64,000 nt of DNA. Origin: a virus. Lineage: Duplodnaviria > Caudoviricetes. This document shows, in pieces, positions 3,165 through 54,102 of the stretch. Location of the stretch: positions 20,362 through 84,361 of the IMG/VR virus record IMGVR_UViG_3300025519_000052. One strand, written 5' to 3'. The notes beneath the pieces were generated by a model. It was not told where the DNA came from and ran no database searches. It saw nothing but the letters and a program-made list of their open reading frames with translations. The first letter of the stretch is position 1. Every line of letters begins with the position of its first letter. A program made the translations under genes and the position numbers.

Positions 3165-3188
3165 ATCATCACCTTCAGCATTATTGAT

Positions 3189-3255
3189 TCAGCGAGATGG
3201 GAATCGAATCCACATTTTTGCTACTGGCTACCATTTGCCATTAAATTACTCGCTG
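3189..3255 (-). pseudogene. Degenerate tRNA-like element
   Basis: 7-bp acceptor CAGCGAG/CTCGCTG, D-arm ATTT-AATGGC-AAAT, T-arm GTGGA-TTCGATT-CCCAT; the anticodon arm is short and poorly paired; no encoded CCA. Confidence 0.55.
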
Positions 3256-3306
3256 GTAATATTAAAAAGATCCTTGCGCCAATCGGAGTAAGCGCAGGGA
3301 CCTTAA

Positions 3307-7685: not shown

Positions 7686-8041
7686 GGAACTTAAGTTCCT
7701 TCTTTTTTTATCAAAATAGATAAGAATATTCTTACTTATAAATAAAAACAAAAAATGGGAGTAATTCAATAATGAACTATATAAATACATCCATCTTCAA
7801 AATTTGAATTGGTTGTGTCGCAAACATAAAGTCCTTTCCACTTGCAAATCCATTCTTAATTCTTTTAACCCTTTCCTATGCTGCTCTATGATGTATATTG
7901 TGTATTATGTTTCATTCATGCTTACTTTAGGTTAAATAAAATTTTAAATAAATTTTTAAATAGGGGCGTACAAAACAGCAGAAACGCGTTAATATATTTA
8001 TAGAGAAAAAAACTCAACTACTAAATGAAGGAGCGATTTAA

Positions 8042-14281: not shown

Positions 14282-14518
14282 AGTTAAAACTTCATGGATT
14301 GTCTGAAGTAGAAATAAAAATTTAATACCATTCCACCATTAAATATGGTGGATTTTTTTATTCCTCAGTTTACATCTTAAAACCTGCAGATATAAAGATT
14401 ATGTAATTTTTATTGATGATGATTTTTAAAAAATATCTAAGATGCAGCTTACAAACGAAAATCATCAGATATAAAAAAATTGAAATTAAACAAATCTTTA
14501 AATCGGAGGAATTTTATT

Positions 14519-15508
14519 ATGGAAAATACTCAACTTCGCCAGCTACAAAATACTGTTGAAATTATTGGTACTTTGAAATCTAAAGATTTAGAAGTTCGTA
14601 CTTCCAAAAAAGGCAATCAATATATGTCTGGCAATTTAGTAGTTCAATCGGTTGTTGATAATAAAATTAATGAAACAAGGGTAAGAGTTTTCACTATGCA
14701 ATCTTCCAAATTGTTTAAAGGAATTGAAACTGTTAAAAACGAGTACAAATCAATTGATGAATATGGTGAAGAAAATGCAGATCGAATTCGAGTAATTGGT
14801 GAATTGGGATTAAATGAGTATTATAATCAACAAGGCAACTTAGTTCAATTTAATGAAGTTAGAGGCGTTTTCTTCAATCGTTTAGACAAAGAAAATAAGC
14901 AACCAGATAAAGCTATTGCTTCAATTGAAACTGTTGTTGAAAATTTTGTTGAAAAAACTGATAAAGATGGTCTTCCAACCGGTGAATATGCTGTCAATGG
15001 TTTTACTGTTGGATGGGGAAATGAAGTTATTGAATTGAAAAATGTAGTAATTGGTAAAGAACTTGCTCAATCATTTATGGACTTATATCAACCTGGCTCA
15101 ACTGGTCTATTAACATATAAACTTAATAACTATGTTGAGGTTGAAGAAAGACAAGAAGAACAAAATACTACACATGGATTTGGATCTAGTGAAAAAGTTT
15201 CCAGTTCAAATATTATCAAAAACTATGTAAATAACATTGAAATTATCGGTGGCGATATGCCATTCTTCGGTTCTAAGGAATACACACCAGATGAAATTGC
15301 GGCTGCAAAGAAAATTCGTGCTTTAAAATTGCAAGAATTACAACAACCGGCACCTGAAATTCCACAAACCAATACTGGATTTGGACAAAAACCTTTGACA
15401 ATGAAAGACATTGATAGTCAAATGCCAACAAATATGATGGACGGTAACCAAAATCCATTTGATGCAATGAATAATCTAAATGATGATGACGAAATGCCAG
15501 ATTTTTAA
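14519..15508 (+). CDS. Single-stranded DNA-binding protein (SPbeta YorF-like)
   Basis: OB-like N-terminus (EIIGTLKSKDL), acidic DDDEMPDF tail; RBS AATCGGAGG before the ATG at 14519. Confidence 0.75.
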   Translation: MENTQLRQLQNTVEIIGTLKSKDLEVRTSKKGNQYMSGNLVVQSVVDNKINETRVRVFTMQSSKLFKGIETVKNEYKSIDEYGEENADRIRVIGELGLNEYYNQQGNLVQFNEVRGVFFNRLDKENKQPDKAIASIETVVENFVEKTDKDGLPTGEYAVNGFTVGWGNEVIELKNVVIGKELAQSFMDLYQPGSTGLLTYKLNNYVEVEERQEEQNTTHGFGSSEKVSSSNIIKNYVNNIEIIGGDMPFFGSKEYTPDEIAAAKKIRALKLQELQQPAPEIPQTNTGFGQKPLTMKDIDSQMPTNMMDGNQNPFDAMNNLNDDDEMPDF

Positions 15509-15591: not shown

Positions 15592-16332
15592 ATGGGCAAT
15601 AAATATGACGATATTCGTTGGAAATGGTTGGCTGAACGAGGATTTAATGTCTTAGCTGATAAACACCAATATGCTTATGCTCAAAGTTTATTTGCGAGCC
15701 CTGACGTTGTAACTGGAGTTTTTTGTGATGCAAAAGCTGGAACTGGTAAAACAACAATTGCCACTTTAATTGGTGCATATGAAGTGGAACGAGGAAATTA
15801 TGACAGAATTATTTATGTGAGAAACGCTGTTCCAGTTCGTGATATTGGCTTTCTTCCTGGTGGAATTGGTGAAAAAGAATTGCCTTATATGTTGCCATTT
15901 ATTGAAGCTCTTGACCATGTTCAACCTGGATTATTTGAAAAATGGTCATGTCAACAAGAAGATGGAAAGAACAAAGATAAAGAAACTCCAAAGGTTCAAG
16001 TTACTACTTCTGCTTATTCAAGAGGTATTACTTGGAATAATGCTTTTATTATCATTGATGAATTTCAATCTTTCGACCTTAATGAAGCACAAACTGTTTT
16101 AACAAGACCAACTGATAACTGTAAAGTTGTTGTTATTGGATCAACAAGACAAAATGATAATCCAAAAAATAAAATTAATGGAATGACTCCGTTCGAAATA
16201 TATATGAGACATTTTCAAGGTTATCCGGTAGCTTTCCATAAACTTGAAACTAACTATCGTGGATGGTTATCAACTAGAGCTGATGAAATACATGAGACTA
16301 TTGAGAAGTTAAAATCGGAGGAAATATCATGA
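15592..16332 (+). CDS. phoH: PhoH-family ATPase
   Basis: AKAGTGKTT, GFLPG...EK, RGITWNNAFIIIDEFQ, VVVIGSTRQND. Confidence 0.92.
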   Translation: MGNKYDDIRWKWLAERGFNVLADKHQYAYAQSLFASPDVVTGVFCDAKAGTGKTTIATLIGAYEVERGNYDRIIYVRNAVPVRDIGFLPGGIGEKELPYMLPFIEALDHVQPGLFEKWSCQQEDGKNKDKETPKVQVTTSAYSRGITWNNAFIIIDEFQSFDLNEAQTVLTRPTDNCKVVVIGSTRQNDNPKNKINGMTPFEIYMRHFQGYPVAFHKLETNYRGWLSTRADEIHETIEKLKSEEIS

Positions 16333-19881: not shown

Positions 19882-20040
19882 CCTAGTCTGTAAAATATTT
19901 GTTTAGCTACCTATATAATATTTAAAAAAATTGTTTAAAAAATTGTTTAAAACTTATTAAAAAATTATTAAAAATGATTTACATTTTTATTTAACTAGAT
20001 ATAAAGAATACGTAATTTGATTAAATGAATTTTTAAATCG
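19882..20040 (+). repeat. Direct repeat copy 2 of the promoter module
   Basis: See 19088-19300. Confidence 0.8.
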
Positions 20041-20053
20041 GAGGAATGTATTT

Positions 20054-31286: not shown

Positions 31287-31391
31287 TTCTTCTTTTTTAT
31301 TTGCTTTGGTTCCTTGGTTTTCTCTTTTACGTTTTGTTTTATCAAGATATAAATATTAAGAAGTTATAAATATTAGGAGGAAAACTCAACT

Positions 31392-33134
31392 ATGAAAATA
31401 AAACAAATTGGTAATTACAACGGAGATATAATAAAAACAATTCTTGAAAATAGAAATATAGAAGACGTTGAATTGTTTTTGCACCCTAAAAAACAAAATG
31501 AATTAAACAGCTTTAATTTATACAATATGCGGCAAGGGGCTGAAGTGTTGCTTGCTCATTTATTAGTCAATAACAATGGTGCCATACTCGTTGACCCAGA
31601 TGCTGATGGTTTTTCATCATCTTCAATAATCTATCAATATATTAAAAAAATCAAGCCTGATGCGAAACTTAATTATTTGCTTCATGATACTAAAGCTCAT
31701 GGATTAACTGATAAAATTATTGATAAGATAGTTAATTCTCCCGAGCCATTCGATTATATTATTATTCCTGATGCTGCTTCGAATGATGAAAAAGCAATTT
31801 CTAAGCTTTATTACATGGGAATAGATGTTATTGTTATTGATCACCACGAAGTTGAAAATATTCCAAAACAAGGAATTATTATTAATAACCAATTAGATTC
31901 TAATATAGAAACAAATAAAAATCTTGTTGGTGCAGGAATGGCTTATAAATTTTGTCAAGCTCTTGATCATATTTTGAATACCAATTTTGCTGATGATTTT
32001 CTTGAATTGGTTGCAATTGGTCAGGTTGGAGATTCATCAGACATTAGTGAAAATGAAGTTCGTTACCTTGTTTTTCAAGGAATTAAAAATATAAATAATC
32101 CATTTATTCAAGTTGTTCTTGCAGATAAATTAAAGAATCAAGAAAATGTTGCACCAAAAGATTTATCTTTCTCTATTATTCCACTAATTAATGCTGTTGT
32201 TCGTGTTGGGACCGATGAAGAGAAAGATTACTTATTTAGGGCACTAAACTCAATTAATGCTGATGATACTTTTGTTGTCACTAAAAAGAAAAAGAATAAA
32301 CAAACAGGAAAATTTGATTCTTTTGAAGTAGAACAAAGCTTTTATGAATATGTATATGATATTTGTAAAAGAGTTAAATCAAGACAAGATAATCTGGTAA
32401 AAAAAACAATGGCTGAATTGTTGACCAACATCGATAATTCAGGTGGTATTGTTATTGGTGTGCTTCAAAATTCAGATCAAGGTTCAATTACTGGATTGGT
32501 TGCAAATAAATTAGTTTCTAAGTTCCAAAAACCAGTTATTCTTGTTCACCATGTTCCAGGAAAATATGTTGGTTCTGGCCGTGGTTATGTAAAAGTTCTT
32601 CCCTCTTTAAAAGATTGGTGCAATGAAACTAAATTAGTTGAATTTGCCCAAGGACATGCTAATGCTTTTGGAATTTCTATCTTTGAAGAAAATTTTGAAG
32701 CCTTCAAAGAGAAAGCTAAAAAAGTTGAAAAACAAGAATTTGTTTATGAAGTTGATTTACTCCTTGAAGGCAAGGTTGATAAAAAACCAATTCTTGATGT
32801 TGAGGAGCATAAATATTTATTTGGCGGACGGGTTCATGATCCACTCTTTGCCTTTACTGGAATTAAAGTTCGTAAAGAATGGATTAAACAAAGAGGACAA
32901 ACACTTACATTCTTCGACTCTGGAGTAGAATTTGTTTTCTATCATGCACCAGAGGGATTATTTGAAAGTCTCACTCACAACTTTGACCAATTCATAACAA
33001 TGGATTTTGTAGGAAAACCATCAGTGAATAGATATGGAAACAAAATAACGCCACAAATAATTCTTGAAGATTGTGAAAGAAATGAACAAAAAACAGAAGA
33101 AAAAGAAATAACAATTGCTGATTTGGTATTCTAA
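31392..33134 (+). CDS. recJ: RecJ-like ssDNA exonuclease (YorK-like)
   Basis: DPDADG, IPDA, IDHH, GSGRG, GHANAFG. Confidence 0.93.
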   Translation: MKIKQIGNYNGDIIKTILENRNIEDVELFLHPKKQNELNSFNLYNMRQGAEVLLAHLLVNNNGAILVDPDADGFSSSSIIYQYIKKIKPDAKLNYLLHDTKAHGLTDKIIDKIVNSPEPFDYIIIPDAASNDEKAISKLYYMGIDVIVIDHHEVENIPKQGIIINNQLDSNIETNKNLVGAGMAYKFCQALDHILNTNFADDFLELVAIGQVGDSSDISENEVRYLVFQGIKNINNPFIQVVLADKLKNQENVAPKDLSFSIIPLINAVVRVGTDEEKDYLFRALNSINADDTFVVTKKKKNKQTGKFDSFEVEQSFYEYVYDICKRVKSRQDNLVKKTMAELLTNIDNSGGIVIGVLQNSDQGSITGLVANKLVSKFQKPVILVHHVPGKYVGSGRGYVKVLPSLKDWCNETKLVEFAQGHANAFGISIFEENFEAFKEKAKKVEKQEFVYEVDLLLEGKVDKKPILDVEEHKYLFGGRVHDPLFAFTGIKVRKEWIKQRGQTLTFFDSGVEFVFYHAPEGLFESLTHNFDQFITMDFVGKPSVNRYGNKITPQIILEDCERNEQKTEEKEITIADLVF

Positions 33135-33180: not shown

Positions 33181-33774
33181 TTATTTTTTCCAAAACTTCC
33201 ACCGGCGTTTTTTCTGAGTTACTGTCATCATTTGTTTAACTTCTTGTATTGTTCTTAGAGATTCCATTAGCATTTTGTCTCTTTCAGAAATCTTATTTTC
33301 TATTAATCTTTGTGAATTTTTATTTTCTTCTTTTAATTCAATTAATTCTTTTTGCTGATTTTTTAAAATGTTATGCTGCAGAATCATCATTTTTTTCATT
33401 TCTTCTATTTGCTTTGCCATAGCCGTTATAACTTCTATATTTGGCATAGAAGTTGTATCTTGCTTAAATTCCGGCTCTTGATACACGGTTATAGTAGTTG
33501 TGGAAGCGATCACTTGCTTAATTGCATCTTCAACTTTTATGCCTGGCTGATTCTTCAATTGAATTATTTTTCTAAACATTTCTATATCCATCTGGCTGAA
33601 AGAAAGTCTTCCTTGGTTAGTTCTTTTAAAACGATAACCCTTTTCTTCAATTGCTAAATAGTACTTTTTAATTGTTGCAGGTCTAACGCCCAAAATAGAA
33701 GCAACTTCATCTACTCCAACAAATATATCCATTTTTTTCCTCCATAGTTGAGTTATATCTTTTATAACTATCAT
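33181..33774 (-). CDS. MerR-like HTH + coiled coil (DUF3967-type plasmid protein)
   Basis: EVASILGVRPATIKKY...GYRFKR, KISERDKMLMESLR, RRWKFWKK tail. Confidence 0.75.
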   Translation of the reverse strand: MIVIKDITQLWRKKMDIFVGVDEVASILGVRPATIKKYYLAIEEKGYRFKRTNQGRLSFSQMDIEMFRKIIQLKNQPGIKVEDAIKQVIASTTTITVYQEPEFKQDTTSMPNIEVITAMAKQIEEMKKMMILQHNILKNQQKELIELKEENKNSQRLIENKISERDKMLMESLRTIQEVKQMMTVTQKKRRWKFWKK

Positions 33775-33918
33775 AACTATTATATCTTAGTTTTTTCATA
33801 CTTTCTATTATTTTCTTTAGACAAAAGTCGTCATCTTTTTTATTTTTATTCAATTTACGTTTCCTTTCATCAAGATATAAAAAATATGTAAATTAAATGA
33901 TTCGGAGGAAAAAACAAA

Positions 33919-34356
33919 ATGACTAGAGAATGCTCAACTACTGAACCAAAAATCATTATTTTAGAAGGTGTTGATCGTGTTGGTAAAAGTACTTTGAAAG
34001 ACACAATTCATAAGTTAACCAATTTCAAACATTTCTTAATTGATCGAGGACCAATTTCATACATGGCGTACTGTGAAATTTTTAATAGGCCTATAGATTT
34101 GTATTTAAAATATTCAGACATGGAAAAAAGGCTTGCTAAAATGCCAAATGTTTTGGTGTTTTATTTAACTGCAAATAATGAAACTCTTGTTGATCGTTGT
34201 ATTGCAGATAATCATGAAATTATTGACTTTGATTTTCATAAGCAAGTTTTTGAAAGAATTATAAAAACTTCTCCACTAAAATCGATTACTATCGATACTT
34301 CAAATAATTCTTCTGAAAGCATTGTTACAGATTTAATTAAAGAAGGTGTTTTGTAA
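33919..34356 (+). CDS. Deoxynucleoside monophosphate kinase (thymidylate-kinase fold, YorR-like)
   Basis: ILEGVDRVGKST, IDRGPIS. Confidence 0.85.
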   Translation: MTRECSTTEPKIIILEGVDRVGKSTLKDTIHKLTNFKHFLIDRGPISYMAYCEIFNRPIDLYLKYSDMEKRLAKMPNVLVFYLTANNETLVDRCIADNHEIIDFDFHKQVFERIIKTSPLKSITIDTSNNSSESIVTDLIKEGVL

Positions 34357-36090: not shown

Positions 36091-39000
36091 ATGACAAAGC
36101 TTGGCTATTATGGGAATCATAACCACACAGATGCGAGCAATTTTCGTTTGCGCGACGCAATCAATAAGCCTGAAGAACTTCTTGAATATGCTTTAAAGAT
36201 TGGATTATCTGGAATTTCAATTACAGATCATGAAACATTAGCTTCACATGTAAAAGCTTATAAATATCTTCAAGCAAATAAAGAGAGATTTGGAGATTTT
36301 AAGCTCGGTTTTGGTGATGAAATTTATCTAGTAGATAAAGAAGACATTTTAAATAAGAAAAAACAAAATGAAAAGATTAATTTCTATCACTTTATTTTGG
36401 TCGCTAAGAATCAACATGGATATGAAGGACTTAAAAAGATTTCCTCAAAAGCTTGGCATAATTCATTTTTCTACCGTGGAATGGAAAGAGTACCAACCTA
36501 TAAAGATGAATTGATGACAATCATGGAAGAATATCGTGGAGATATTCTTGCTACAACTGCTTGTATTGGTGGAGAATTACCACAATTATTAATCAAATAT
36601 CATGATGAACCAACCCGGGAAAACAAGTTGAAAGTTCATAATTTTATTGTTTGGCTTAAGGGTGTTTTTGGTGATGATATTTATTTTGAGTTGCAGCCAT
36701 CTCATAATAGAGACCAAGTTGTTGCCAATGAAATGTTATATAAAGTAGGTAAGGCATACGGAGTTAAGTGTATTGTTGCAACCGATGCTCATTATTTAAA
36801 TCCTTCATTTGCAAAAACTCATGAAATTTATTTAAAAGCTTCAGAAGGAGAGCGCGAAGTCGCTGAATTCTATGCTACTACTTATTTAATGTCTCATGAT
36901 GAATTACTTGAATTTTTTAATCCAACTCTTTTAGAAGAACTTGAACAAAATACTCTTGAGATTCGCGAGAAAATCGGTGAGATTACTTTTGAGCAGGAAA
37001 TTAAAGTTCCAAGAGCGCATATTCCTAAATTTGAATTAAATCCATTATTCCAACCATTTTATGATAAATATGAATACATTAAGAAATATTCTGAAAGCAG
37101 TTATGATGTTGATCGTTACTATCTTCATTTGATTGCTGAAGGCATGATTGCAAAGAATCAGGAATTGAATGATACAAACTTAAGTCGCATTAATCTTGAA
37201 TTAAATGAATTATATCATATCAGCGAAAATCTCGGACAACCAATGTCATCTTATTTTGTTCTTACAAAAGATATTGTTGATTTAATGTGGGAAGTTTCAT
37301 TAGTTGGAGTTTCTCGTGGCTCTGCAAGCTGTTTTTATTTAAATTATTTATTGGACATTGTTCAAATTAATCCATTGAAATATAACTTACCTCACTGGCG
37401 ATTTATTTCAAAGGAACGCCCGACTTTACCAGATATTGATATTGATACAGAAGGTTCAAAACGGCATGAAATTATTCATATTGCAAAAGAGCATTACGGA
37501 GAAGAAAATGTTTTAAACATGGGAACTTTCACAACTGAAGGTACTCGTTCAGCCGTTTTAACTGCTTGCCGCGGATTAGGAATTGATAATGATATTTCTC
37601 AAAATATCGCTAATCTTGTTCCAACTGAAAAAGGTAATAAACTTTGGTCATTAAGTGAATGTTTCTATGGTGATGAAGCAAAAGGTAAAAAACCAGCAAG
37701 AGAATTTGTTAACGAAGTTGCTAAATTTAAAGGATTAAAAGAAGCAATGCTATCAATTGAAGGATTGATTTCTGGACGCAGTCAACATGCTTCTGGAGTT
37801 ATTATCTTCCCAGATGGCTATATCAAGCAAAATGCAATGATGAAAACTACATCTGGCTTGCCAGTAACTCAATTTGATGCTGTAGATACTGAATATATGG
37901 GCGGTTTAAAATTAGACTTCTTATCAATTAACGCTTTGGACAGAATCAGAGCTTGTATGGAACTTCTTCTTGAGCATGGAAAAATTGAATGGCAAGGTTC
38001 ATTAAGAAAAACTTACAATAAATATTTTCATCCTGATGTACTTGAAATGGAAGCACCGGAAATGTGGGATATGTTGTTTGAAGGTCATGTTTTAAATGCT
38101 TTCCAATTTGAAACTGATGTTGGACAACAAGCATTAAGAAAAATTAATCCCCGTTCATTTGATGAATTATGTGCTAGTAACTCATTAATGAGATTAAGTG
38201 CTTCAGATGGTGAGCAACCAATTGATAAATATGTTCGATTTAAGAATGATATTAGCTTGTGGTACAAAGAAATGGATGAAGCTGGTTTAACTAAAGAAGA
38301 ACAAAAAGTATTAGAAGATTTACTTCTTGATCGATATGGAATCTGTGATACACAAGAATTTCTTATGCAGATTGCCATGAGTCCAAAAATTTCAGGTTTT
38401 ACCTTAACACAAGCAAATAAATTTCGTAAGGCTGTTGCTAAGCAAAACGAACAATTAATTGAAGAACAAAAACAAATATTCTATTCTCAAGGTGAAAAAA
38501 TCGGTACTCGAAAAGAATTTCTTGATTATGTTTGGAATAAAGAATTAAAACCTCAATTTGGGTGAACATGCACGCCCAAGTAAAACTCGGTGAACCAAGG
38601 CCATGGGTGTCATATGTAAATATATCCCAGTTCTCTATATAATATTTACATATGGCTAACGGGGAAACCTGTAAGATGGCAATCCCGTGCCAAGCCAATG
38701 AATTTTTCATTGGAAGGTGTAGAGACTATTATGTAGGACAACTATTGGCACGTTGTTCGAAGCGCCGAGCAATAATGTGTTATTATTTCTTTAAGAAAGA
38801 TAAATTAAAATGAGTCAACACATTATTGAAGATATAGTCCACTCCGTATGGAAACATACGGGATAAGTGATGCATTTTCACTTCCGCACATCTCGGGGTA
38901 TTCATTAATCTTGATGATTGAGATGAATATTTGTTATCGATTTGGTCCAGTTTGGTGGAAGACAGCTTGTTTATCTGTTAATGCAGGATTAATTGGTGAA

Positions 39001-40203
39001 ACTGAGAAAAATACAAAATATGGTGCGGTTGCTAAAGCTGTTGGAGATATGCATGGTGATGTTTTGAATCCTGATATTAACCTTTCTAATGTAGGATTTA
39101 CTCCATTGGAAAAGGAAAACAAGATTCTATTTGGTTTAAAACCTATTGTTGGCTTAGGATCCAATGACATTGCAGCAATTATTGAAAATCGACCATTTAA
39201 AGACTTCAAAGACTTTTTTGTTAGAATGATTAAAACCAAAATTCTTTCTGAAGCAAAAGGCATAACATTAATTAAAGCTGGATGCTTTGACAAAATGAAT
39301 CCAAACAGAAGAGAACTGATGATTGCTTATGTTCGAGCAATTACACCTAAAAAAGAAAAACTTACAATGACACAACTACCTTCTATTATTCAGTTTATAG
39401 ATAAAAATAAATATTCAAAAGAGCTTGCAGCTTATAAACTTAGGAACAAATTATTTGGAAGAAATAAAGTTCCAATGACTAAAGAACTTGAACATGAATT
39501 TATGTTATTCTTGAAAGCTTACCCTTTTGAAGTTGAATACGATTTTCAAGATGGACAATTGGTTGTTGATCAAAAATCATTCGATAAAGCCTATAAACAA
39601 ATTATTAAACCATTGAAAGAATGGGTTACTTCTCCAGAAGCAGCTCAACTGTATAACAAAATTAAAATGCAAGAATTCTGGAAAAAGAATTGTATGGGCA
39701 CAATTGAAGCATGGGAAATGGACACTCTATTGTTCTATTCTGACAAACATGAGATTGATTATATGCCTTTAAGCAAGTATTTCAATATATCAAGCTTTAA
39801 CAAGCTTCCTCGAGAGCCAGTTATAACTGGTTATAAAAGTTATAGAGGTAGACAAATTCCTCAATATAAGATTGATATAATTGCTGGTACGGTTGTTGAT
39901 AAGAATAAAAACAAATCTCTTGTTTATGTATTAACGCAGGACAGTGGCGTTGTTACTGTTCGGTATTCTAAGAGCCAATTCGCCCATTATGATAAAAAAG
40001 TGGTTCGTGTAAATGGGAAAAATAAAGAAATACTGGACCCAAGTTGGTTTGATCGTGGCACCAAACTTATTCTTATAGGATTTAGAAGGCAAGATGAGTT
40101 CGTATTAAGAACAACAGGCAGTATATTCAACCATACAACTATTAAAATATTGGGGTATAACAGTCATAATGTATACTTTCAACAAGAAAAAGCCGAGGCT
40201 TAA
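36091..40203 (+). CDS. dnaE: DNA polymerase III alpha (DnaE/YorL-like), spliced: join(36091..38563,38870..40203), 1268 aa
   Basis: PHP motifs HNH/TDH/TDAHY, SRGS, PDIDID; removing 38564-38869 restores the conserved PQFGYAFSLPH. Confidence 0.95.
38564..38869 (+). mobile_element. Group I intron, 306 nt, no homing endonuclease ORF
   Basis: The 5' exon ends in U paired to G in P1 (TTGGGT/GCCCAA); core motifs GCTAACGGGGAA, AATCCCGTGCCAAG, GTAGAGACT, GATATAGTCC; P9 CCGTATG-GAAA-CATACGG; terminal G at 38869. Confidence 0.93.
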
Positions 40204-40817: not shown

Positions 40818-40893
40818 TTTTTTGAAATGATTTTTGAATTTATCTTTCACTATTTTTAAGACCAAAAAACAATAATCGGAGGTTATAACAATT

Positions 40894-41112
40894 ATGACTA
40901 CTTTAATGACAACTACTAAAAAATTTTTTGCAACTACTGAACTTGAAGCTCAATCACTTATTAATCAAATTAAGAAAGAACACGGTTCGCACATTAAAAA
41001 TTCTTCAATCACTAAGAAAACCAAGAAAACCAAGAAAGAAGTTGAGTACTATATTGTTTCTGTAACTATTGAATTCTACCGTGATAAGGATTTAGTTACT
41101 GTGGCTAATTAA
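40894..41112 (+). CDS. Hypothetical protein
   Basis: Good RBS; 72-aa ORF with phage-like codon usage. Confidence 0.65.
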   Translation: MTTLMTTTKKFFATTELEAQSLINQIKKEHGSHIKNSSITKKTKKTKKEVEYYIVSVTIEFYRDKDLVTVAN

Positions 41113-43559: not shown

Positions 43560-43598
43560 ACTGCGTATAATAAATAATGTAAATCGAACATATGTTCG
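43560..43598 (+). promoter_or_regulatory. sigmaA-like promoter with a perfect LexA/DinR box just downstream
   Basis: TATAAT at 43566-43571; CGAACATATGTTCG at 43585-43598. Confidence 0.75.
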
Positions 43599-45819: not shown

Positions 45820-46078
45820 GGAAGGAGGAGATATTGAAAATCCTGAAATATTATTTAAACTTAGTAAAAACTCCAATTCAGATAAAAACATAATAATTCA
45901 ATAATTGGGCTATATGAATATATAGTCGGCTGGAAAACTGATTATATAAAAAGAAGAGAAAAGTATTCAACTAATTTTTTTATCAACAAAGACAACCAAT
46001 TTGGTTGTCTTTTTTATTTTACGTTTGCCATTGATTAGATATAAATAATATGAATCTATAACTAATGGAGGTTATTAT

Positions 46079-46721: not shown

Positions 46722-47084
46722 GTGGTGAAAATAAGAATCAGGAAAGATGCTGTTGAGTTGTATGTTCAGGAGCATACAGATTGGAATGGAGTATATCGAG
46801 GGAGTGATAAATGGGAAAGAGCTCTTTCCAAAATTGCTGGAAAAGAAATTGAAGTTGATACTGAGACCTTATTCAAGCATGAGTTCAATACTAAGCCAAT
46901 CCCTGGTGTTTCTAAAGAAGGAATTAGAATTATGGAAGAATATGTTGAAGAAGTAATCGACGATGAAAGGAAGGGTAAAGCTTACTGTGAACTATGTGAG
47001 AAAACTTCCGAATCGGACAAGGTATGTCTTTACTGTGGTAGATCGGATTATCTGGAACCATTTTTTGATGAGTACTATGACTAA
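46722..47084 (+). CDS. Hypothetical protein with C-terminal zinc ribbon
   Basis: CELC...CLYC. Confidence 0.65.
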   Translation: MVKIRIRKDAVELYVQEHTDWNGVYRGSDKWERALSKIAGKEIEVDTETLFKHEFNTKPIPGVSKEGIRIMEEYVEEVIDDERKGKAYCELCEKTSESDKVCLYCGRSDYLEPFFDEYYD

Positions 47085-47193
47085 AAAAAATCCTGTACCA
47101 ATCGGAGGAAAAAGTACAGGACCATATGAGTTATTAAAATAACTCGACTCAACTACTGAAAATAATTTTACCGCATATAAATTCTAAAGTCAA
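47083..47193 (-). ncRNA. Small RNA gene (about 75 nt, 47157->47083) with its own sigmaA promoter and terminator
   Basis: TTGACT (47193-47188)-N17-TAAAAT (47170-47165); hairpin GAGTTATT/AATAACTC; terminator TCCTGTAC/GTACAGGA followed by T8. Confidence 0.75.
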
Positions 47194-47227
47194 TTGTTGT
47201 TTATGTAATTATGAAAACAAAATATAA

Positions 47228-47383
47228 TAAAAAAATAGCCTAGTTTGCGCTAGGCTATTTGGAGAAGTAGCACCTGCTACTATTTGGTGGAACAACACCT
47301 GCTCACCGACCAAAGTTTACAGGAGTGTTTCCTACATGCTTTTTGGTTATGTTTATTATAGCAGGTGTTGCTCCTTAATTCAA
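47228..47383 (-). ncRNA. Countertranscript (antisense) RNA in the rep leader, about 120 nt
   Basis: TTGAAT (47383-47378)-N17-TATAAT (47360-47355); terminator AATAGCCTAG/CTAGGCTATT with a T-run on the minus strand. Confidence 0.72.
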
Positions 47384-48416: not shown

Positions 48417-48518
48417 TTGATATATTTATTCATCATATAATGGTTTACGTCTTTTTCAAAACACGATATAATCATATAGAAATAAATAAATTACATATAA
48501 TAGGAGGAACTCGACTAT

Positions 48519-50435
48519 ATGACAACTACTAATAACGATAAAATTAGGGTACTTGATGATAGAGAGAAATCAAGAGAAAAAATTTCTATCTTTTTTGGTT
48601 CAAAAGATAATTTTGTTCATGGTCTAAAAGAAGTAATAGCAAATAGTACTGATGAAATTATTTCAAATTTTGACAGTGGAGAAGTAACAGTCCACTTACA
48701 TGATGATTTGCAAACAATTACTGTAAAAGACACTGGCCGTGGTATTCCGATTCATGGCGAAACTGATGGAATTAAAAATTACGAATTATTATTTAGAACT
48801 TTATTTGCTGGAACCAAATACGATACAACAGAAGCGACTACAACTGGAACAAATGGTGTAGGAAATACAGTTTTGAATTACACATCTTCACTTTTTTATG
48901 TTGAATCATATTATGATGGATATAAATATTCTTTAAAGTTTGAAAATGGTGGAGAACTGGTTCAAGATTTAAAAAAAGAAAAATGTGATAAATCACTTCA
49001 TGGAACTACTATTACTTTTAGATTGGATCCTGAAGTTTATCCTGTTATTACTTATAATGCTGAAGAAGTTAAGGAAATTGTTAAACGGTTTGCTGTTGGA
49101 TCGCCAAAAGTAAAATTAATTTTTATTTATAATGGAAAAGAAGAAACATTTCACTATGAAACAATTGAAGATTATTATAATGAGTTAATTGGCAACTCTT
49201 CAACTTCTCCAGTTGTAACAGCACCGGAAGCAACTTATAATGATGAAAATGAAATTACAAAAATTAAATTAGTACTTTCAACAACTCCTGAAACAATCCA
49301 AGAATCATATTTGAATCTTACTTATTTATCAGAAGGCGGAGCTTTCAATGATGGAGTAATTGCTGGTATTCGATTATTCGCAAATAAGTACTGTAGGAAT
49401 AATAAACTATTTCCTAAAGGTGTAAAATCATTTACAAGTGATGATATTGAATCAAGCGTTAGTTTTGTTCTGGTCGCACTTTCAAATAAGGTTGAATTTA
49501 AAAACCAAACTAAGCTATCAACAGATAAAAAGCTTTATAAAAAACTGGCTCAAAAGCATGTTACTCAATTATTAGAAGCATTTGAAATTGAGAATGAAAA
49601 AGGGTTTAAGAAATTTATTAATCACTTATTAGAAGTTCAAAAACATAATGCAGCTAATCAAAGAGCTAAACAACAATTAAAAAAGAAATTAACTGAAAAA
49701 ACTAATGGAATCGGAAATAAAGTTGAAAAATTGGTTGATTGTAAGAAACATGGTCCAAAATCTGAAATTTTCATTGCTGAAGGAAATTCTGCTCTCGGAT
49801 CAATCGTTTTAGCCAGAGATGCAACATATCAAGCAGCCTATCCTTTGCGAGGGAAGATTTTAAATTGCTTAAAGGCTGATTATCCAACTATTTTTCGTAA
49901 TCAGGTTATCACTGACTTAATTAAGGTTTTAGGTTGTGGTATTTCAGCTGATAAAAAGAATAAGGATTTAGATACATTTGATATTAACAATCTTCGATTT
50001 GGAAAAATAATAATTGCAACTGATGCAGATGCTGACGGTGCTCAAATTGCATGCTTAATTATAACTATGTTTTATCGCCTAATGCCAGAACTACTTAAAC
50101 AAGGATTTGTCTATATTGCCAAAACTCCATTATATGAGGTTAAACTTGAAGACGATACAATGATTTATTATTTTTCTGAAAGTGAAAAAGATGAAAAACT
50201 TCCAAAGCTAAAAGGAAAATACACAATTGCACGTTGTAAAGGATTGGGCGAACTTGACGCCGAAACAATGGCAAAAACAGCCATGAATCCAGAAACACGT
50301 AATCTAATCCAGGTTACAGTTGAAAGTGCTAAAAAAATGGCAGAATCATTGGAAGTTTGGATGGGAAATTTTGTTGATGGAAGAAAAACATTCATTGAAA
50401 ACAATTTAGCAAAATATGTTGAAGCAGCCATTTAA
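48519..50435 (+). CDS. Type II topoisomerase subunit B (GyrB/ParE-like)
   Basis: EVIANSTDE, DTGRGIP, GTNGVG, AEGNSA, PLRGKILN, TDADADG, KGLGE. Confidence 0.95.
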   Translation: MTTTNNDKIRVLDDREKSREKISIFFGSKDNFVHGLKEVIANSTDEIISNFDSGEVTVHLHDDLQTITVKDTGRGIPIHGETDGIKNYELLFRTLFAGTKYDTTEATTTGTNGVGNTVLNYTSSLFYVESYYDGYKYSLKFENGGELVQDLKKEKCDKSLHGTTITFRLDPEVYPVITYNAEEVKEIVKRFAVGSPKVKLIFIYNGKEETFHYETIEDYYNELIGNSSTSPVVTAPEATYNDENEITKIKLVLSTTPETIQESYLNLTYLSEGGAFNDGVIAGIRLFANKYCRNNKLFPKGVKSFTSDDIESSVSFVLVALSNKVEFKNQTKLSTDKKLYKKLAQKHVTQLLEAFEIENEKGFKKFINHLLEVQKHNAANQRAKQQLKKKLTEKTNGIGNKVEKLVDCKKHGPKSEIFIAEGNSALGSIVLARDATYQAAYPLRGKILNCLKADYPTIFRNQVITDLIKVLGCGISADKKNKDLDTFDINNLRFGKIIIATDADADGAQIACLIITMFYRLMPELLKQGFVYIAKTPLYEVKLEDDTMIYYFSESEKDEKLPKLKGKYTIARCKGLGELDAETMAKTAMNPETRNLIQVTVESAKKMAESLEVWMGNFVDGRKTFIENNLAKYVEAAI

Positions 50436-50630
50436 GGCTTGCTTCTTTTTTTGTTTTTATTAAATTATCAGAATACTTTTACTGGAAAAAAATTGGGAAA
50501 AAAATCCAATTGGGGGTTCGCAAAATCCCAATTCCACTATATAATAATAAATGTAAGCGATATTAAATAAAAAATTAAACAAAAATATAAATCAACTACT
50601 CAACTACTACTAAATCGGAGGTAATTCGGA

Positions 50631-53908: not shown

Positions 53909-54102
53909 GAGGATAAATTCCTCTTATTTTTTATTTATATGCAATTATCAGAAAACTTAAACTTTATCCAAACTGGATTTTTTTTCAAAAAAAAGGGTTC
54001 GCGAATGGCCAAAAAAGGCCTATAATTAATAATGTAATTGAGATTAAATAAAAAAATACATAAGAAGTTAAATAAAAAATCAACTACTATGGAGGTATTA
54101 AA

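Follow-up and report, generated by a model that had tools for sequence, protein, structure and literature searches.

The question raised by this locus is whether a short gap next to a plasmid replication gene encodes a small RNA (sRNA) that acts on many genes of the same element, and if so with what effect. The window that we analysed is a stretch of 64,000 nucleotides, positions 20,362-84,361 of an 84,361-bp IMG/VR metagenomic virus record. The complete genomes compared were the full record, Geobacillus phage GR1 and pBS32, the 84-kb plasmid prophage of B. subtilis NCIB 3610; the region around the sRNA is approximately 72% identical to GR1 and to pBS32 and its relatives. The window, GR1 and pBS32 have in common the gene order thymidine kinase, small ORF, gap, replication gene and GyrB-like gene, and in the window the gap measures 318 bp, from the end of a 120-aa ORF (47084) to the start of the gene for the RepA_N initiator, repN (47403). 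Every promoter found of the type described for SigN of pBS32 (TTTACGTTT, about 11 nt, CAGATATAA; PMC6751061) lies on the early-gene strand: the window has 14, GR1 has 24 and pBS32 about 20. The sequencing runs that contain the window are all DNA metagenomes. A RepN-guided search of genomes and viral contigs recovered few or no further relatives, as did a search guided by the sigma factor, and tblastn with RepN matched thousands of unrelated RepA_N plasmids.

Within this gap the minus strand carries a free-standing, noncoding gene with its own promoter and intrinsic terminator, a general feature of trans-acting sRNAs (Table 1). The earlier note had read there a near-consensus SigA promoter followed by a transcript of approximately 75 nt, consisting of a tail, a hairpin, a terminator hairpin with its loop, and eight U residues. 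The strand reads exactly so, and the computed fold agrees: the promoter matches the SigA consensus at 10 of 12 positions, seven bases lie between its -10 element and the predicted transcript start, and the minimum free energy of the RNA is -20.2 kcal/mol (z = -3.6), with none of 200 shuffled sequences folding equally well. The free 5' tail is 12 nt long in the fold of the window copy, and nucleotides 1-7 are unpaired in all homologues. We also considered whether the transcript might encode a small peptide and rejected this reading: the window copy contains a single ATG, which lacks an SD and has no counterpart in GR1, and no ORF is conserved.

Table 1. Positions of the sRNA gene, its neighbours, box sites, promoters and related features in the window.
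Feature	Position	Strand	Remarks
Predicted 75-nt sRNA	47083..47157	-	5' end 47157; ends in eight U
SigA-type promoter of the sRNA	47165..47193	-	-35 TTGACT 47193-47188, 17-nt spacer, -10 TAAAAT 47170-47165
5' seed, sRNA nt 1-11	47147..47157	-	AGUAGUUGAGU; unpaired in fold
Stem-loop 1, 7 bp	47128..47145	-	hairpin at the same place in 7 of 7 homologues
Stem-loop 2, intrinsic terminator	47089..47124	-	11-bp stem, 13-nt loop; loop 47100-47112 has CCUCCGAUU
Terminator U tract (U8)	47083..47090	-	
Convergent 120-aa ORF	46722-47084		stop codon abuts the sRNA U tract
Probable repN promoter	47200..47228	+	TTTATG-17-TATAAT; back-to-back with the sRNA promoter
Separate countertranscript to the repN leader, approximately 120 nt	47228..47383	-	promoter 47355-47383, terminator 47233-47260
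Tail box, 11 nt	8012..8022	+	30 nt before the ArdA start (8042); dG -15.9
Loop box AATCGGAGGAA at SD and 8-nt tail box, ORF 14519	14501..14535	+	tail box at codons 4-6
Loop box, 12 nt, at SD	16313..16324	+	nucleoside deoxyribosyltransferase gene
Loop box, 11 nt, at SD	20036..20046	+	AAA_24 (Sak4-like) gene, behind SigN-type promoter
SD GGAGGAAAA fused to ACTCAACTA	31376..31392	+	runs into the ATG of the DHH (RecJ-like) gene
Both boxes, in the sense of the MerR-HTH/DUF3967 gene	33734..33753	-	gene start 33732
Loop box, 12 nt, at SD and 10-nt tail box	33902..33942	+	dNMP-kinase-like gene; tail box at codons 5-8
AATCGGAGG at SD and two CAACTACT	40874..40938	+	ORF 40894; both CAACTACT in the first 15 codons
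GGAGGAA, complement of sRNA nt 9-17, then CAACTACT	48503..48530	+	GyrB-like start; CAACTACT at codons 2-4
Tandem tail boxes, then AATCGGAGG	50590..50621	+	SprT-like leader; dG -15.7 and -15.1
Tail box, 9 nt, directly before SD	54080..54088	+	amidoligase gene
SigN-type promoters, first seven of fourteen	10441, 14369, 16860, 19978, 28028, 30188, 31326	+	
SigN-type promoters, other seven of fourteen	33854, 40235, 40371, 43759, 46018, 48444, 51332	+	
Perfect Bacillus LexA box CGAAC-N4-GTTCG	43585-43598	+	upstream of the phage sigma gene; only one in the window
MerR-type HTH gene with DUF3967 tail	33181-33732	-	only opposite-strand gene in the early region
Second hairpin with the same loop ACUCCGAUUG, terminator-like	3264..3302	-	late operon, right after the small-terminase stop

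Seven distinct homologues of the sRNA were found, including those of the window, pBS32 and GR1, and all seven fold alike. These three were found by BLAST and not by pattern, and although their hairpin stems differ, they agree fully in the -35 (TTGAC), GGTAAAAT, transcript nucleotides 1-11 and the loop core CTCCGATT. In pBS32 the predicted RNA is about 67 nt long and runs on the minus strand from NZ_CP034485.1 position 39501 (5' end) to near 39435 (NC_021809.1, 83934 to 83868). The four further versions (L022/L072, L054, L070/L084 and L083) come from pattern scans of viral and metagenome contigs; the promoters of L022 and L054 read TTGACA-17-TATAAT/TAAAAT. Promoter, 5' tail and loop core are unchanged across all seven, the invariance of tail and loop core in the four extra members being there by design, since the scan pattern required both. 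A CM from the seven homologues scores 59.7-88.3 bits on each of them. In the model-fitted alignment, six of the 11 pairs in the terminator stem have changed on both sides (compensatory substitutions); the covariation score was reached by none of 500 shuffles, and sliding the partners abolishes the signal. The anatomy, conservation and covariation of the gene we regard as established.

The seeds are invariant among the homologues found, and variation that allows a comparison of seed and targets exists only at one position in the loop flank. A looser pattern that dropped the requirement on nucleotides 1-7 returned no new true member with a changed seed, and the CM gave no new match at loci around SigN-type promoters in 23 viral contigs and no match in 105 genomes of one Bacillus family. 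With the exact pattern, 401 sampled genomes of the class yielded a single match that, by eye, was judged spurious. Both the sRNA and the boxes described below are kept in the relatives GR1 and pBS32.

We called start regions (-50 to +35) by SD and ORF in the full record, GR1 and pBS32, and counted all 8-mers in them without reference to the sRNA. Besides the SigN -10 element and A-rich words, the top 8-mers in all three genomes fall into two groups. The words ATCGGAGG and AATCGGAG, which complement the loop, occur in the start regions of the three genomes at 100-330 times expectation, and CAACTACT, TCAACTAC and CTCAACTA, which complement nucleotides 1-8, at 75-108 times. We call AATCGGAGG, the complement of the sRNA loop, the loop box, and CAACTACT, the complement of the 5' tail, the tail box. 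Both boxes are almost restricted to the early-gene strand, and nearly all genomic copies of the box words lie within start regions (e.g., 20 of the 21 copies of ATCGGAGG in GR1). The window holds 11 copies of CAACTACT against 1.1 expected, ten of them on the plus strand, and ten copies of AATCGGAGGAA, one mismatch being allowed, where 1.25 are expected; neither number was equalled by any shuffle. The exact 11-mer ACTCAACTACT is present three times in the window, three times in GR1 and nine times in pBS32, and never on the other strand (always + in pBS32).

Complementarity to the sRNA was also compared with controls directly. Eight or more nucleotides of complementarity to the tail are present in 12 start regions of the full record, 12 of GR1 and 13 of pBS32, against 0.4-0.65 for permuted motifs. 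Strong pairing of tail and loop together is found at 6 of 66, 11 of 75 and 9 of 68 early start regions, respectively (controls 0.09-0.23, maximum 3). On the late strand, the start regions with strong tail pairing number 3, 0 and 3, and those with strong loop pairing 3, 3 and 1, in the same order of genomes. The earlier note's proposal that two single-stranded parts of the RNA are complementary to many phage start regions is thus borne out in three genomes, with pairing far above the shuffled and permuted controls in each. The targets that it listed all hold (ArdA, sprT, amidoligase, ORF 55891, recJ, gyrB, ssb, NDT, Sak4 and dNMP kinase), and the matches at ORF 40894 and in the start region of the sigma gene (43831 and 43840) are present as well; the gene for a DUF3846 protein is also among the window genes with boxes. 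In pBS32 the leaders with boxes include those of the dUTPase, ligase, RNR-alpha and thioredoxin genes. A conserved unpaired seed, with complementary sites enriched in start regions, is a further general feature of trans-acting sRNAs.

That matches to the SD were partly expected by chance, as the same note had allowed, is fair; however, the AATC extension is itself enriched, and pairing with 16S rRNA does not explain it. Loops with shuffled flanks that keep CTCC find 2.6-6.3 strong sites against 12-29 observed, which indicates that AATC and the A-rich flanks matter, and not the SD alone. The calculated duplex energies are -14.5 kcal/mol for the 11-bp tail duplex and -8.3 kcal/mol for the 8-bp seed. 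Loop boxes reach -13.3 to -21.5 kcal/mol, compared with -9.1 kcal/mol for a generic SD, and their flanks therefore fit the sRNA loop better than a generic SD does. Directly 5' of AATCGGAG, 7 of 22 sites in GR1 have C, and the GR1 sRNA loop ends in GAUUG; in pBS32, with a loop ending in GAUUA, none of 17 sites have C and 5 have T. This is one small co-variation with the end of the loop.

Tail boxes are found upstream of the SD, in the stretch from the SD to the ATG, or within codons 2-9. Within codons the tail box occurs in all three frames, reading Ser-Thr-Thr, Leu-Asn-Tyr or Thr-Gln-Leu. The varied positions and the use of all frames argue for a constraint at the nucleotide level that is tied to the start codon, and not for one on the protein. 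An RNA-level reading is also favoured by the single early gene on the opposite strand, for a MerR-HTH/DUF3967 protein, whose two boxes are oriented in its own sense. The presence of boxes turns over among orthologues, and there is no gene-by-gene conservation. As with the anatomy of the gene, the enrichment, placement and strand bias of the boxes are established.

Taken with the conserved anatomy, these boxes suggest that the gene probably encodes a trans-acting, base-pairing anti-RBS sRNA of pBS32/GR1-type phage-plasmids, which damps translation of the regulon of SigN-type and immediate-early genes during plasmid carriage. Expression of the RNA, its pairing in vivo, the direction of its effect and its physiological role are what we infer from the anatomy. 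Host SigA RNA polymerase would transcribe the sRNA from the plasmid-maintenance module, from a promoter back-to-back with that of repN. The RNA would then expose two recognition elements, its first 8-11 nt and the CCUCCGAUU core in the terminator loop, which would pair with the boxes (ACT)CAACTACT and AATCGGAGG, respectively; in each genome 10-25 early genes carry boxes, at about -45 to +30 of their start codons. By function, the putative targets fall under nucleotide metabolism, replication, anti-restriction and accessory roles, and in many cases they come first after a SigN-type or immediate-early promoter. With the loop on the SD and the tail within the ribosome footprint or beside it, initiation should be blocked: the loop would occlude the SD and the 5' end would clamp the nearby box, possibly followed by decay of the message. 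Leaky early messages would in this way be kept silent in the plasmid state, until LexA cleavage frees the sigma factor and mass SigN-driven transcription of the regulon out-titrates the sRNA.

The location of the gene invites another reading, in which the sRNA serves plasmid replication or copy-number control through repN, either at its start region or in cis on read-through from the tdk operon, and the other matches are secondary. The sRNA adjoins the RepA_N initiator gene in the window, in pBS32 and in L022, which keeps the order tdk, ORF, sRNA, RepA_N, and it adjoins the replication gene in GR1. The repN SD of L022 has a CAACTACT box directly before it, that of the window reads GGAGGAA (loop dG -12.5), and read-through from the SigN-type promoter at 46018 would yield a perfect complement of the sRNA. 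However, when the gaps of the window, GR1 and pBS32 are aligned, they contain two separate minus-strand promoter-terminator units, and the sRNA is the one farther from repN. The probable repN promoter lies between the two units, with its equivalent (TTTACG-17-TATAAT) at the same place in GR1 and pBS32. Because this conserved promoter (TTTAYG-17-TATAAT) is located beyond the sRNA gene, the ordinary repN message would not overlap with the sRNA, and the repN leader is already covered by the other unit, the separate countertranscript. In L070 and L083 the sRNA is found in other surroundings with no rep gene nearby, and in each genome more than ten other start regions match the sRNA better than repN does. 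RNAI-type countertranscripts of RepA_N plasmids are likewise small minus-strand RNAs upstream of the initiator gene, and they lie within, and are fully complementary to, the rep leader. This description fits the neighbouring unit (47228-47383) and not the predicted sRNA, which lies outside the repN transcript and is not antisense to repN. We consider a primary role in the control of repN to be very unlikely.

An alternative explanation is that the boxes are sites for a protein that binds DNA or RNA, enhancers that pair with rRNA, or recombination linkers, and that the unit upstream of repN is a bidirectional terminator with a fortuitous promoter, or the relic of an inverted leader, with no regulatory pairing at all. 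The sRNA hairpin does also end the convergent upstream ORF, and boxes are enriched behind certain promoter classes: the GR1 tail box is found in 10 of 22 SigN-type and 4 of 7 immediate-early leaders, versus 6 of 77 other start regions. The boxes favour promoter-proximal genes, a preference that fits the sRNA reading as well. Yet one element occupies precisely nucleotides +1 to +11 and the other the terminator loop, both being invariant while the surrounding stems change, and the promoter of the sRNA is conserved too. On the plus strand of the sRNA gene the two elements, 47 nt apart, have an order and spacing that reverse those of the leaders, and the gene is therefore not simply one more leader copy. 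The tail box stays within about -43 to +26 of the start codon, whereas anything between 0 and 75 nt separates it from the promoter -10, which is ill-suited to an operator. All this makes an origin without regulatory pairing improbable in our view. The pairing might also have another outcome: the sRNA could activate or time expression, through protection of leaders from RNases or through RNase III processing, or it could provide superinfection immunity against related phages. Sequence data fix the pairing and not its outcome, and an invariant seed in elements that are 72% identical would cross-react between relatives. Speaking against activation, the SD itself lies under 9-15 bp of pairing with the loop, and in known systems coverage of the SD by pairing blocks 30S binding. 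Immunity determinants usually diversify, but the seeds of the sRNA do not, and we attach little weight to either of these outcomes.

Repression of translation during plasmid carriage, the reading we prefer, is a narrower role than the one first proposed, in which the sRNA was a master repressor that stands in for a CI protein. The analysis does not support that claim. The sigma gene of the window is preceded by a perfect LexA box, where none would be expected by chance in the whole window, and in pBS32 the promoter PsigN1 is repressed by LexA (PMC6751061). In the sigN start region of pBS32 neither a tail box nor a loop box was found. The claim is further weakened by the control of pBS32 sigN through antisense transcripts in cis (PMC10601692) and by the turnover of boxes among orthologues. 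A SigN-type promoter is also situated just before the sigma gene of the window, which suggests that the sigma factor activates its own expression. The related statement that no CI-like switch is visible stands only in part, because a conserved helix-turn-helix gene is present and a protein regulator is thus possible. This lone MerR-type gene with its DUF3967 tail has a conserved counterpart at the equivalent position in GR1 and in pBS32, and in the window both boxes of the sRNA are found at its start; its product is a candidate regulator. A stronger version of our reading would make the sRNA the principal post-transcriptional immunity factor, which reads a two-box leader code across the early regulon and, together with LexA control of sigma, replaces a CI-type repressor, while a second anti-SD loop after terS shuts down early translation late in the cycle. 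We consider this version unlikely.

In its logic, the nearest analogue is the c4 RNA of P1 and P7 (immI), in which two exposed segments pair with two boxes at the RBS and block translation (PMC12197685). As in c4, a small RNA of a plasmid prophage has two exposed segments that match two boxes at ribosome-binding sites, but the likeness is functional only. The c4 RNA is cut out of the leader of its target operon, icd-ant being its only target, whereas the sRNA has its own promoter and terminator, uses a 5' seed and a terminator loop, and matches 10-25 start regions. Its conserved SigA-type promoter, its terminator and its orientation against the neighbouring genes are at odds with processing of the c4 kind, and the Rfam C4 model gives no match at the gathering threshold and none on the locus at E up to 10.

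The CI RNA of satellite P4 and the CA RNA of N15 cause premature transcription termination in a single leader. The sRNA resembles them as an RNA of a plasmid-type prophage that would restrain early or anti-repressor expression through short complementary boxes, and differs in that its boxes lie on the ribosome-binding sites of many genes. RsaE/RoxS and the hairpins of S. aureus RNAIII use unpaired CCUCC-type motifs to occlude several SDs without Hfq, and they share with the sRNA an independent promoter, an intrinsic terminator and a C-rich anti-SD loop. Unlike their targets, the putative targets of the sRNA carry an extended box (AATC plus GGAGG) and a second box for the 5' seed, and the regulon would consist of the element's own early genes; neither RsaE/RoxS nor RNAIII has sequence or CM similarity to the sRNA. 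In phage T4 the RegA protein recognises many early start regions and shuts off their translation; here, too, one phage factor would address many early messages, but as an RNA and not a protein. No Rfam family matches the sRNA; the only weak hit is to the atoC RNA motif (RF01733), which likewise consists of two hairpins and bears a CCCUCC loop on the second, a terminator. For this family the window reaches 34.7 bits against a gathering score of 50 and the other six homologues do not match it, and the likeness is architectural only. We would place the gene in the class of phage-encoded trans-acting anti-RBS sRNAs, within which it would stand out because a dedicated two-box leader code lets it address a whole regulon.

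pBS32 is a much-studied plasmid prophage. After DNA damage its SigN regulon brings about hyper-replication and kills the cell; LexA and the antisense transcripts at sigN are the known controls of this regulon. Full-text searches found, in the literature covered, no description of a pBS32 sRNA upstream of repN, and the published Rend-seq work on pBS32 makes no mention of such an RNA. If our reading is correct, the sRNA adds an undescribed, regulon-wide layer of control over at least 12 start regions of the SigN regulon, and this layer could account both for the harmlessness of leaky expression and for the position of the induction threshold. The sRNA would also offer a clear example from nature of a mobile element that tags its own messages with a shared RNA address. 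Since seed and loop are identical in pBS32, the idea is testable with standard B. subtilis genetics.

A loop like that of the sRNA recurs in the late operon, in the second hairpin listed in Table 1. Counterparts of this terS hairpin are found in pBS32 (NZ_CP034485.1, about 76185-76246, minus strand) and in GR1 (about 77088-77141, minus strand); the loop reads ACUCCGAUU(G), the stems differ in the three genomes, and a U run comes next, before one reaches the tRNA gene(s) and terL. To judge from this second occurrence, the anti-AATCGGAG loop seems to be a module that can be reused, and a 3' fragment of the late transcript that carries the terS loop might occlude early SDs. In the window the terS hairpin is followed by a tRNA-like stretch (3170-3262, minus strand), although ARAGORN calls no tRNA in the window, and by eye a tRNA-like sequence is seen at the same place in pBS32.

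Some further features of the window were observed on the way. The promoter of the countertranscript next to the sRNA gene is of the TGnTATAAT type and overlaps the repN SD region, and this unit is conserved. In the repN sense leader, CAGGTGTTGC is able to pair upstream or with the SD region, which is the usual alternative-pairing layout in the antisense copy-number control of RepA_N plasmids. At gathering thresholds, the only Rfam match in the whole window is a group I intron (RF00028, 71.9 bits) at 38601-38861 on the plus strand, between the ORFs 36091-38565 and 38848-40203. There is also a second class of leaders, in which a SigA-like -10 element is followed by text similar to ATGTAAG(A/C)GAGATAAATAA and then by a tail box. 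In the window such leaders occur at 50540-50600, 54030-54090 and 7990-8015, before the sprT-like, amidoligase and ardA genes, respectively, and they are also found before several genes of pBS32 and GR1.
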